1,647 nt of DNA, from assembly GCF_003334765.1 (NCBI RefSeq), contig NZ_QOWT01000077.1; one strand, given 5' to 3'. Below are positions 1 to 1,647 of this stretch, one piece after another; the first letter of the stretch is position 1; each line of letters opens with the position of its first letter. The notes beneath the pieces were generated by a model. That model was given only the letters and a program-made list of their open reading frames with translations, did no database searches and was not told the origin of the DNA. Position numbers and translations under genes: made by a program. The stretch is from Escherichia coli. Lineage in GTDB: Bacteria > Pseudomonadota > Gammaproteobacteria > Enterobacterales > Enterobacteriaceae.

Positions 1-77
1 ACCAACCGCATGGCTGCCTGTTCCGTGCAAATGGGCTTTGCAGGGGGCTGGCGCGGTTCCTGGCGACCTGAAAGCCC
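1..77. repeat. Terminal direct repeat, copy 1 (identical to 1571-1647); circular-closure overlap
   Basis: Base-by-base identity of 1-77 with 1571-1647 (77/77). The repeat sits exactly at both window ends, the signature of a circular molecule written linearly with a k-mer overlap. Implied unit length is 1570 bp. Confidence 0.9.
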
Positions 78-264
78 CTGGTTAGGGGTATCGGCGCGCT
101 TGACCTCCTGAGAGCCTCTGTAAGCGTTTTTCGCGCCTTCCATGCCCTGGCGGGCATCTAAAACCCGTTTCGTGCGTCTGAGAGCTTTTGAGCGCGTTTG
201 AGGGGCTATCTGGCGACTCATCCCCAAAAGAACAACACCGGGATCACCGACAACATGCGAGAGG

Positions 265-328
265 TGATCCCGCTCGCCGCAAGTCGATGACCGAGCGTAG
301 CGAGCGAATCGACGAGGAAGCGGAAGAG
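265..328 (-). other. ColE1/pMB1-like block downstream of bom (candidate single-strand initiation / primosome-assembly-like site)
   Basis: The minus strand reads CTCTTCCGCTTCCTCG ... CTCGCTACGCTCGGTC ... GCGGCGAGCGGGATCA. From memory this resembles pBR322/pUC sequence between bom and ori (CTCTTCCGCTTCCTCGCTCACTGACTCGCTGCGCTCGGTCGTTCGGCTGCGGCGAGCGGTATCA), with a 16-bp identical run and roughly 80-85% identity over about 60 bp. It contains a CGCTCG/CGAGCG stem. The functional label is inference. Confidence 0.5.
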
Positions 329-364
329 AACCGGAAGCCACATTGAGCACTTACGCACTGATGC

Positions 365-389
365 GGGGTGTCGGGGTGAAGCCCTGACC
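365..389. repeat. Left arm of 25-bp inverted repeat (inverted partial copy of the bom arm)
   Basis: GGGGTGTCGGGGTGAAGCCCTGACC is the reverse complement of 613-637 at 24 of 25 positions (mismatch at 377/625). The two arms are separated by 223 bp. Confidence 0.9.
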
Positions 390-394
390 AAGTG

Positions 395-432
395 GTAATC
401 GTATCGGCGTGCATGCGCGGTTATACGATTAC
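395..432. repeat. Hairpin-forming inverted repeat (10-bp perfect stems GTAATCGTAT / ATACGATTAC, 18-nt loop containing GCATGC)
   Basis: 395-404 is the exact reverse complement of 423-432. It lies between the left IR arm and the tandem repeats. Confidence 0.8.
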
Positions 433-539
433 ACATCCTGTCCCGATTTCTGAGGCGTTTTAACGGTGAACGGACGGCAAAAACACGATGGAGCTGTTGA
501 ACGTGAAAACCACGAAATCTGGCAAAAATCACGGCTGGC

Positions 540-581
540 GAGGCTTGCATAGGAGTAAGCGAGGCTTGCATAGGAGTAAGC
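540..581. repeat. Perfect tandem direct repeat, 2 x 21 bp (GAGGCTTGCATAGGAGTAAGC)
   Basis: 540-560 and 561-581 are identical. On the minus strand the repeat begins exactly at the predicted nick (GCTTACTCCTATGCAAGCCTC twice). Confidence 0.95.
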
Positions 582-640
582 CAGTATACACTCCGCTATC
601 GCTACGTGACTGGGTCAGGGCTTCGCCCCGACACCCCCAA
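577..640 (-). other. ColE1/pMB1-type oriT (bom) with predicted nick between 580 and 581 on the minus strand
   Basis: The minus strand reads GGGGGTGTCGGGGCGAAGCCCTGACCCAGTCACGTAGCGATAGCGGAGTGTATACTGGCTTA. From memory this matches the pBR322 bom region (GGGTGTCGGGGCGCAGCCATGACCCAGTCACGTAGCGATAGCGGAGTGTATACTGGCTTA) with only about 3 substitutions. The nick is placed by analogy to the CTGG/CTTA context. The pBR322 sequence is recalled, not aligned. Confidence 0.75.
613..637. repeat. Right arm of 25-bp inverted repeat (part of the bom/oriT)
   Basis: GGTCAGGGCTTCGCCCCGACACCCC pairs with 365-389. Confidence 0.9.
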
Positions 641-641
641 A

Positions 642-666
642 GGGCGTTGCGTTGCACGCAACACCC
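642..666. repeat. Hairpin (10-bp stem with one mismatch, loop TTGCA) flanking the oriT
   Basis: 642-651 GGGCGTTGCG pairs with 657-666 CGCAACACCC. The loop and right arm contain CACGCAACA (655-663), which recurs at 781-789 next to the rep promoter. Confidence 0.7.
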
Positions 667-675
667 TTGCCTAGA

Positions 676-731
676 ATAGATCTTTTACGCCGATTTGTAA
701 GTGGTTGTTTTTTTAGTGTGTTTTTTATTTA
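676..731. other. AT-rich tract, candidate DNA-unwinding element of the Rep-dependent origin
   Basis: A run dominated by A/T (TCTTTTACGCCGATTTGTAAGTGGTTGTTTTTTTAGTGTGTTTTTTATTT) between the oriT-like region and the palindromic repeats upstream of rep. The functional assignment is inference. Confidence 0.35.
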
Positions 732-781
732 CCTGTCGCATCCAGGATGAAACAACGTTGTCGCATCCTGGATGCGACAAC
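731..781. promoter_or_regulatory. Operator/iteron-like repeats: 25-bp perfect palindrome (757-781) plus degenerate upstream copy (734-755), each centred on a CCWGG site
   Basis: 757-781 GTTGTCGCATCCTGGATGCGACAAC has perfect 12-bp arms around a central T. 734-755 TGTCGCATCCAGGATGAAACAA repeats the left arm and core 25 bp upstream. Half-site TGTCGCATCC occurs at 734-743 and 759-768, and inverted at 771-780. It sits immediately upstream of the candidate rep promoter. Confidence 0.5.
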
Positions 782-794
782 ACGCAACAAGGTG

Positions 795-824
795 TTGCAC
801 AGATGTGTCATGATGGCTTAGATT
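795..824 (+). promoter_or_regulatory. Candidate sigma70 promoter for rep (-35 TTGCAC 795-800, 18-bp spacer, -10 TAGATT 819-824)
   Basis: Hexamers read directly from the sequence. The position between the palindromic operator-like repeats and the rep RBS fits an autoregulated rep promoter. Not experimentally anchored; alternative weak hexamers exist in the AT-rich tract. Confidence 0.35.
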
Positions 825-852
825 TGAACCAACGTTAGTGCATGGGATTTTC

Positions 853-858
853 AGAGGG
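853..858 (+). promoter_or_regulatory. Shine-Dalgarno sequence for the rep CDS
   Basis: AGAGGG lies 8 nt upstream of the ATG at 867. Confidence 0.6.
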
Positions 859-866
859 AAAAAATC

Positions 867-1343
867 ATGTTTATTGATTCAGAAAAACGACTGAAACAAC
901 TTTCAGATGAGGCAAAGAAAAACACCGAGGATCTCGAAGAAGCAAAGAAAAATTCAAGGTTTACACAGGTATCCCCAAAAGGTTGGGAACGTGTTCGAGA
1001 GCTGCTGAAGGATAGCCAAGGCATATCAGCACTGAAGCTGTACTCATTTTTAGCGGAGCATATCGATCCTACGTGTGGCGCTGTCGTTGCGGATCAGCAA
1101 TTCCTAGCTGAAAAACTTGGAGTTAGCAGAAGCACAATTATTCGGTGGCTCAATTACTTAGAATCAAAAAATGCATTAGTTAGAATCCCCGTTGCTGGTA
1201 AGGTTTGTGCGTATGCCCTCGATCCACATGAAGTCTGGAAGGGATACAACACTACGAAAAACCATGCAGCGTTTGTCACTAAAACACTGGTCAACAAAGA
1301 CGGTGATATTCAGCGCCGAATCATGGCCATGTTTTCAAATTGA
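867..1343 (+). CDS. Putative plasmid replication initiation protein (small winged-helix/HTH Rep), 158 aa
   Basis: ATG at 867 with a Shine-Dalgarno AGAGGG at 853-858 (8-nt spacer) and TGA stop at 1341-1343. It is the only long ORF without Arg/Pro/Trp-rich low-complexity composition. The C-terminal half has an HTH-like segment (QQFLAEKLGVSRSTIIRWLNYLESKNALVRIP) typical of winged-helix DNA-binding domains of plasmid initiators. It lies just downstream of an AT-rich tract and palindromic repeats. No HUH or catalytic-Tyr motifs, so not a rolling-circle Rep. The Rep assignment rests on context and motif, not on a homology search. Confidence 0.8.
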   Translation: MFIDSEKRLKQLSDEAKKNTEDLEEAKKNSRFTQVSPKGWERVRELLKDSQGISALKLYSFLAEHIDPTCGAVVADQQFLAEKLGVSRSTIIRWLNYLESKNALVRIPVAGKVCAYALDPHEVWKGYNTTKNHAAFVTKTLVNKDGDIQRRIMAMFSN

Positions 1344-1478
1344 GCTAGCGGCAGGCGGACAATCAGGGGCTACGTGTTAACGTTCTGACCATGATTGTCT
1401 ATCCTGCATTGCTCTTTTGCCGCCTCAAAATCCTTTGCGTGTTTTTGCTCCCCGTTCTCCAGAAAAAACCGAGCCGCC

Positions 1479-1532
1479 ACGGTTCCGGCAGCGCCTTGAG
1501 CGCTACCGGAAACCGTCTGGGGAGAACCCCAG
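1479..1532. repeat. Nested inverted repeats / hairpins in the GC-rich region
   Basis: ACGGTTCCGG (1479-1488) pairs with CCGGAAACCGT (1506-1516), enclosing AGCGC-CTTGA-GCGCT. A perfect hairpin CTGGGG-AGAA-CCCCAG follows at 1517-1532. No adjacent T-run, so these are not intrinsic terminators. Confidence 0.6.
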
Positions 1533-1570
1533 ACCCCCATCGCTGCAACACCGACGGTCTACGACCACCT

Positions 1571-1647
1571 ACCAACCGCATGGCTGCCTGTTCCGTGCAA
1601 ATGGGCTTTGCAGGGGGCTGGCGCGGTTCCTGGCGACCTGAAAGCCC
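1571..1647. repeat. Terminal direct repeat, copy 2 (identical to 1-77)
   Basis: Same 77-nt sequence as the window start. Most likely redundant sequence, not a biological repeat. Confidence 0.9.

Follow-up and report, generated by a model that had tools for sequence, protein, structure and literature searches.

Relaxases of the MOBP family nick DNA within the sequence (C/T)ATCCTG(C/T), which is adjoined on its 5' side by an inverted repeat (PMC3772185). In IncX plasmids the origins of transfer (oriT), oriT-alpha and oriT-beta, lie within long inverted repeats, and the genes ddp1 and ddp2 are taxA and taxC (PMC3332091). In ColE1, primosome assembly by PriA takes place on the displaced strand, at the single-strand initiation site ssiA (PMC3167613, PMC5935869). 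Sequences that resemble these elements are found in the DNA analyzed here, a stretch of 1,647 nucleotides from Escherichia coli (contig NZ_QOWT01000077.1; the whole stretch is referred to as the window) that contains a small plasmid of the pKL1 type. A preliminary description of the window drew attention to two open reading frames (ORFs) that span the junction of the circular plasmid. The results presented here make it highly likely that neither ORF is a gene and that both are chance open frames in GC-rich non-coding DNA. Taken as a whole, the evidence argues that the ORFs are not genes and that the half of the plasmid in which they lie is probably composed of a cis-acting oriT and a portable priming module.

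The molecule is circular, as had been assumed; bases 1571-1647 are a copy of bases 1-77, and the window therefore consists of a circle of 1570 bp and an overlap of 77 bp. On this circle the coordinates and translations first given for both ORFs are exact. The plus ORF begins at the ATG at 1391, occupies 1391..1570 and 1..111 on the plus strand, and ends at the TGA at 109-111; its translation of 96 aa begins MIVYPALLFCRL. The minus ORF begins at the ATG at 221-219, occupies 1..221 and 1399..1570 on the minus strand, and ends at the stop codon at 1401-1399; its translation of 130 aa begins MSRQIAPQTRSK. A linear ORF list does hide or truncate the two frames; the 60-aa ORF that it gives on the minus strand (1399..1581) corresponds to the C-terminal portion of the minus ORF. 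The ORFs overlap in antiparallel orientation, and the third codon positions of both coincide. The sole accepted gene of the plasmid is repA (867..1343, plus strand), which encodes a helix-turn-helix (HTH) replication initiator and served as the positive control in the coding tests. The GC content is 59% in 1344..350 (577 nt) and 46% in the remainder of the plasmid.

The region was aligned from 12 plasmids with 82-100% identity, among which the shared core comprises 1474..221 (the relatives are designated by L numbers). Within this core, substitutions in the plus ORF are spread flat over the three codon positions (14/14/13), and those in the minus ORF show no excess at third positions (20/24/22). 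The pooled ratio of nonsynonymous to synonymous change (pN/pS) is 0.90 for the plus ORF and 0.60 for the minus ORF. In the remaining four frames pN/pS is between 0.61 and 1.21, and the value of 0.61, about equal to that of the minus ORF, belongs to a frame that is not open. In the same plasmids the repA control has only synonymous third-position changes, except for one replacement in L012, and its pN/pS is 0-0.1. The GC content by codon position is likewise flat in the plus ORF (0.56/0.60/0.64) and the minus ORF (0.60/0.56/0.62), whereas repA has the pattern of a gene (0.52/0.37/0.40). In the core, most insertions and deletions have lengths not divisible by three (1, 1, 2, 8, 10 and 11 nt). 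The lengths of the ORFs are not beyond chance expectation. When 1344..350 was shuffled 1000 times with dinucleotide composition preserved, an ATG-initiated ORF of at least 96 codons was present in 30% of the shuffles and one of at least 130 codons in 8%.

Both frames are interrupted in close as well as divergent copies of the region. Only the pKL1 sublineage (the window, pKL1 and L001) has an intact plus ORF; in the other lineages, which comprise 9 of the 11 relatives, it is shortened to 7-51 aa. A 1-nt indel near 1463 truncates it in the lineages outside this sublineage, and in L012 it is also split by an insertion of 1.3 kb. The same indel alters the C-terminus of the minus ORF in all lineages except the pKL1 sublineage. 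A stop codon in L009, a 10-nt deletion in L012, and deletions of 2 and 8 nt in L013 break the minus ORF, which is frameshifted in L010 and L023. Copies of the region in large plasmids (an IncX4 plasmid, an IncFII-like plasmid of Klebsiella, and an IncF-type plasmid with IncFIA/FIB/FIC replicons) contain stop codons and frame changes in the minus frame. Neither ORF matches an NCBIfam family, and no Pfam domain was found in any cluster of homologues. The only protein homologues are ORF calls from small E. coli and Shigella plasmid contigs (59-227 aa), all made on the same DNA element. The flat codon-phase counts, pN/pS values unlike that of repA, broken frames and absence of a protein family are the reasons for which the ORFs are judged not to be genes. 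The suspicion that both might be spurious, raised in the preliminary description together with the lack of a good Shine-Dalgarno site at either ATG, is thus borne out. It had also been reasoned that at most one of two overlapping frames could be real; the evidence now points to neither.

The minus ORF (130 aa, with versions of 120-220 aa in relatives) could instead encode a real, fast-evolving basic protein, for example a DNA-binding or replication accessory factor. Two observations would fit such a protein and weigh against a non-coding region. From the ATG at 221 to approximately 1474, a distance of about 107 codons, the frame has no stop in most of the small-plasmid lineages, and in L014 two insertions of 1 and 11 nt sum to 12 nt and so restore the frame. 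The RefSeq name "rep protein" for longer versions of the frame also favors a protein, as does L011 (NZ_CP055223, 2052 bp), which carries a taxA-like ddp1, two copies of the nick motif described below and the module, but no recognisable Rep. The possibility that L011 depends on the minus ORF for replication was rejected, because L011 is a singleton in PLSDB and its relatives of 2255 and 2307 bp carry RepL; L011 may be a helper-dependent deletion derivative or an assembly artefact. A protein-coding minus ORF is very unlikely given the substitution counts, a pN/pS no different from that of a non-open frame and the interruptions described above. The predicted ends of the frame also vary widely among relatives, with lengths of 81-227 aa, its extended versions cross a homologue of ssiA, which is non-coding in ColE1, and the ATG has only a GGGG directly beside it. 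Even less credible is the plus ORF as a small membrane or secreted protein confined to the pKL1 sublineage. Its annotation in records linearised at repA, its hydrophobic N-terminus and its intact state in the window, pKL1 and L001 are compatible with a gene, but the frame is truncated everywhere else, lacks a Shine-Dalgarno site and a family, and is of a length readily reached by shuffled sequence. Moreover, its start lies on DNA that appears to have another function. The resemblance of its N-terminus to a signal peptide, noted at first, does not hold up, since the residues ATGATTGTCTATCCTGCATTG are the translation of an inverted-repeat arm and nick motif of a putative oriT. The DNA that matches this N-terminus is conserved in IncX4 plasmids, where it is intergenic.

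The RefSeq entries for these frames are best considered with this result in mind. In records linearised at repA, the NCBI Prokaryotic Genome Annotation Pipeline (PGAP) annotates the plus ORF as a "hypothetical protein" (WP_157806413.1). Longer versions of the minus frame in related lineages, of 194 and 219 aa, are named "rep protein" (WP_199778601.1 and WP_226908833.1). These three entries are translations of the same two frames, with ends and lengths that shift with indels, and no curated hidden Markov model (HMM) or experimental basis was found for them. They look like over-annotation of non-coding DNA. In some records PGAP also calls a "replication protein" of 41-46 aa on the minus strand at 218-343 (922-1047 in L002 and 1189-1329 in L008). 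It lies over the ssiA-like block D described below, has no family match and is probably another spurious call. The labels over this DNA are thus inconsistent, being "rep protein", "replication protein", "hypothetical protein" or none. Plasmids that receive the Col(MG828) label have unrelated rep genes and no DNA in common except the module, so Col(MG828) typing appears to track a shared non-coding cassette and not a replication gene. Junction-spanning ORFs in GC-rich non-coding DNA are easily over-called, and codon-phase counts with a neighboring gene as control provide a cheap test.

An IncX/R6K-type oriT-like element is located directly 3' of repA, at 1357..1418 on the plus strand, and the ATG of the plus ORF falls inside it. 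The arms of an inverted repeat occupy 1358-1368 and 1389-1399, and the octamer TATCCTGC follows directly at 1400-1407. This octamer fits the MOBP consensus and has the inverted repeat immediately 5', as in described MOBP substrates. It is unique in the window and does not vary among the aligned relatives in which the region is present. In L009 and L010 another sequence takes the place of the loop between the arms, but the arms still pair. The IncX4 plasmid p266917_2_05 contains two inverted copies of the 60-nt element, each with 85% identity, one of which lies approximately 50 bp upstream of the ddp1(taxA)-taxC relaxase operon and the other beside pir/bis. It was found in 96 conjugative plasmids, and among the matches listed those of IncX4 size mostly have two copies. 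Immediately beyond the nick motif the window and IncX4 cease to be homologous, which would be expected if the conserved part were the recognition side of an oriT. In relatives of 2.0-2.3 kb, a taxA-like ddp1 adjoins the nick motif. Based on the motif, the repeat and the homology to the IncX relaxase region, it is likely that 1357-1418 is an IncX-type oriT, and a nick on the plus strand is predicted after G1406 (1406/1407, TATCCTG/C). In comparison with oriT-alpha and oriT-beta of the R6K family, which are served by the MOBP relaxase TaxC, the order of inverted repeat and TATCCTGC is the same, but the window has a single copy and the plasmid has no relaxase gene. Through 1357-1418, IncX conjugative plasmids that encode TaxC would be able to mobilise the plasmid.

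A second oriT, of the ColE1 type, is located at 568..636 on the minus strand. This basis of mobility (bom) has the nick site TATACTGG/CTTA on the minus strand and is identical at 58 of 60 positions to what we take to be the bom of pBR322. A query overlapping it (578-645) matched 4660 plasmid records, of which 4273 are typed as mobilizable. MOB-suite types relatives that have the IncX-type element without bom as non-mobilizable. The presence of an IncX-type oriT on these plasmids, which MOB-suite does not call, may be new. If the assignment is correct, an IncX-type oriT beside a ColE1-type bom would widen the range of helper plasmids available to 1.5-kb plasmids. The bom nick points into the module from the side opposite to the IncX-type nick. 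Next to the ColE1-type nick site, positions 538-579 are a perfect tandem duplication of 21 bp (GCGAGGCTTGCATAGGAGTAA twice), of which pKL1 and most relatives have a single copy; being so near the nick, the duplication could affect relaxosome binding. The 215 nt on the left side of the bom nick lie between the arms of a 29-nt inverted repeat (365-393 and 609-637, 93% complementary). Its right arm belongs to bom, and the left arm is thus a partial second bom arm in inverted orientation.

Between the two predicted nick sites lies a conserved module of approximately 440 bp (1474..350), which can be divided into four blocks, A to D. Block A (1474..1535) consists of GC-rich hairpins at 1481-1515 and 1516-1535 and is found only in small plasmids of the Col(MG828) type. 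Block B (1538..1647, on the circle to approximately 109-150) occurs alone in pLAU-OXA4 and is also present in L017. Block C (approximately 110..235) contains a 22-nt direct repeat (108-129 and 178-199) and a hairpin, ATGCCC-TGGC-GGGCAT, at 143-158, the stem of which is kept with a different sequence in L017 and L018. Block D (262..350, plus strand) includes GACGAGGAAGCGGAAGAG. The module is 82-94% identical across otherwise unrelated plasmids, whose upstream genes are as different as pKL1 RepA, a RepL-like protein, a 146-aa HTH protein, ddp1 alone, and a ColE1-type RNAI/Rop replicon; all of these carriers are typed Col(MG828), with the exception of L014. Between the window and a lineage of 1552 bp, repA is 99.2% identical with four synonymous changes, whereas the module, in which block D has several indels, is only about 94% identical. 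Recombination has therefore exchanged the module, and the plasmid is a mosaic.

The module is common in E. coli. With 1474..262 as the query it was present in 529 of 5426 complete genomes (approximately 10%), and 670 of its 674 places are on plasmids. A single genome has up to 7 places, which argues against a role in incompatibility or copy control and fits a passive site. Parts of the module are also found near the origins of large plasmids. In IncX4, blocks C-D (81% identity) are approximately 130 nt from the AT-rich region, iterons (GGGGACAGATTTATGGTTAA) and DnaA boxes upstream of pir. L017 (Klebsiella pneumoniae, OW849338) has an IncFII-like replicon, and blocks B and D are situated 100-430 nt downstream of its DnaA boxes. 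The segment 1880-3416 of L017 contains an unannotated ORF of 241 aa that has weak but clear similarity to IncFII RepA (NF040977, E 6e-15). After this ORF come DnaA boxes with an AT-rich palindrome (2760-2900), then block B at 3001-3195 and block D at 3329-3416; block D is present once more, in inverted orientation, at 1332-1427. In L018 (pLAU-OXA4, 2039-3197), two direct copies of block B, each of 201 nt and 99% identical, flank ccdA-ccdB, and ten tandem copies of TTATATGC precede the block B copies. This ccdA-ccdB region looks like a cassette bounded by block B.

Within block D, positions 262-329 are approximately 81% identical to ColE1-derived sequence in vector-containing records, and block D aligns with the own copy of the ColE1-type plasmid L013, just downstream of its RNAI/RNAII origin. 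It also aligns with what is presumably the corresponding sequence of pBR322. Homology of block D to the ColE1/pMB1 ssiA, a primosome assembly site (n'-pas), is very likely on the basis of these alignments, and dependence of block D on PriA in the window plasmid may be expected. The likeness to ssiA includes an alignment of approximately 80% over 262-350 on the strand with RNAII sense. The surroundings differ; the site is expected 100-200 nt downstream of an RNAII-primed origin, but the window has no RNAI, RNAII or ColE1 origin upstream of block D, and the mapped vegetative origin (oriV) of pKL1 is several hundred bp further along (PMC3832669).

The ssiA sense of block D is the plus strand, which is also the strand of the predicted IncX-type transfer. 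Once block D is single-stranded, PriA would assemble a primosome there with DnaB and primase, and the whole module would act as a priming cassette on single-stranded plus-strand DNA. Such a cassette would serve initiation of the lagging strand during vegetative replication, synthesis of the complementary strand in the recipient after transfer, or both. Such a priming role is the most likely one for the module, given the strand sense of block D and the location of blocks B-D beside the origins of two unrelated large replicons. Because the IncX-type nick on the plus strand and the ColE1-type nick on the minus strand converge on the module, the module would enter the recipient first with either, and repA and oriV last. 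That blocks A-C themselves have a priming role is a tentative suggestion, which we consider somewhat less probable than its opposite. More doubtful still is the wider idea that blocks A-C and D form a previously undescribed portable priming cassette between two convergent oriTs that moves among unrelated small replicons.

Several results weigh against a priming role for blocks A-C. A G4-type ssi, which needs primase only, was considered for these blocks and rejected, as they did not match the phage G4 oriC or G4-like phages at E values up to 1. Their comparison with ColE1 RNAII and its origin gave an nhmmer E value of 3.6 and a Smith-Waterman score no better than those of shuffled sequences, and similarity to the pBR322 region beyond bom was not significant. 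A Xer (cer-like) site for multimer resolution, sought as XerC and XerD arms (TTATGNTAAA) with a spacer of 6-8 bp, was rejected as a candidate, the best match (15/22) being equal to the mean shuffled maximum. The potential for hairpins is modest (z about -2.1 to -2.4 relative to shuffles). RNAalifold on both strands found 2-3 compensated pairs, and pairs were broken about as frequently as they were kept. The divergence of the module (approximately 6%) is similar to or exceeds the synonymous divergence of repA (approximately 4 changes in about 110 synonymous sites), and constraint on blocks A-C could be weak. Finally, the oriV of pKL1 is placed upstream of repA in PMC3832669, which cites Burian et al. 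for this location; the module is therefore not the mapped origin.

Blocks A-C could instead be functionless passenger DNA that rides with useful oriT and ssiA pieces and looks conserved only because of recent spread. A divergence close to that of synonymous sites in repA, the absence of structural covariation and of any known motif or family, and the location of some large-plasmid copies amid relics, one example being a degraded reverse transcriptase of a group II intron, are all in keeping with passenger DNA. It is harder to reconcile with the retention of blocks A-C in 1.5-kb plasmids with at least five different upstream gene sets, the presence of the module in about a tenth of complete E. 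coli genomes, the separate association of B and C with origins in IncFII-like and IncX4 replicons, and the hairpin stem at 143-158 that is retained despite its changed sequence in L017 and L018. Passenger DNA is accordingly regarded as unlikely, although of the alternatives it deserves the most serious attention. It seems highly improbable that the module encodes a structured non-coding RNA, such as a primer or regulator produced by read-through from an upstream rep gene. In 9 of 10 small plasmids a gene or operon of the same orientation immediately precedes the module, and the predicted fold is somewhat more stable than that of shuffles (z -2.1); in L014, however, no gene of that orientation precedes it. 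No Rfam match was found in the module at E values up to 10 in the window, and none in the module of seven relatives, where the only match is RNAI, elsewhere in the ColE1-type L013. A promoter scan found no sigma-70-like promoter in the window. The only terminator-like hairpin found, at 1492-1461 on the minus strand, was discarded as it is not conserved and its T-run is missing in relatives. The covariation term of RNAalifold is unfavorable (3 of 96 pairs compensated), and there is no similarity to ColE1 RNAII. A cis-acting region that combines oriT and priming functions thus seems the more reasonable interpretation of this half of the plasmid.

The underlying elements, an oriT and an ssi site, are of known kinds, and the plasmid family has been known since the 1990s. 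What may be new, in addition to the IncX-type oriT, is the arrangement of two convergent oriTs around a portable cassette and the recognition that the RefSeq "rep protein" calls are translated non-coding DNA and, by extension, that Col(MG828) typing appears to follow the cassette.

Along its entire length, the window shares 98.5% identity with pKL1 (NC_002145, 1549 bp) of E. coli KL4 and with hundreds of 1.5-kb plasmids typed Col(MG828). In the search of plasmid records 481 cover at least 80% of the junction query, with partial copies in large plasmids as well. Near-identical contigs of the pKL1 family (L034, L037, L066, L073 and similar) are present in assemblies labelled Streptococcus parasanguinis, Streptomyces capoamus, Flagellimonas pelagia and Aurantibacter aestuarii, and one PLSDB record is labelled Corynebacterium renale. 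These contigs under labels other than E. coli are most likely E. coli contamination. When genome contigs were scanned with a pattern in which 16 bases were specified, most of the matches were due to chance, and only a few contaminant-like small contigs of the lineages already sampled were obtained. The divergent contigs L021 and L022 were distrusted, as they come from a pilon-polished long-read assembly.

Among described plasmids, pKL1 is the closest to that in the window, and the two have repA, the non-coding half and the ColE1-type bom in common. They differ in size, 1570 bp versus 1549 bp, because of the extra 21-bp tandem copy at 538-579. They also differ in annotation, as the RefSeq record of pKL1 annotates repA alone, without the junction-spanning frames. 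Beyond this family, the module can be compared with the G site of R1 and R100, the ssi of pIGRK and pHW126, and the single-strand origins (sso) of rolling-circle plasmids. Like the module, these elements are non-coding, rich in hairpins, located near origins and exchanged between different Reps. The G site, ssi and sso priming elements are orientation-dependent. The module differs in having no similarity to phage G4 oriC. It also differs from rolling-circle systems in that no HUH features were seen in pKL1-type RepA. The ssi of pIGRK is dispensable for replication, and its loss raises copy number and multimerisation (PMC6854812). Finally, the placement of the module is similar to that of G site and ssi elements, as blocks B-D occupy comparable positions in IncFII-like and IncX4 replicons.

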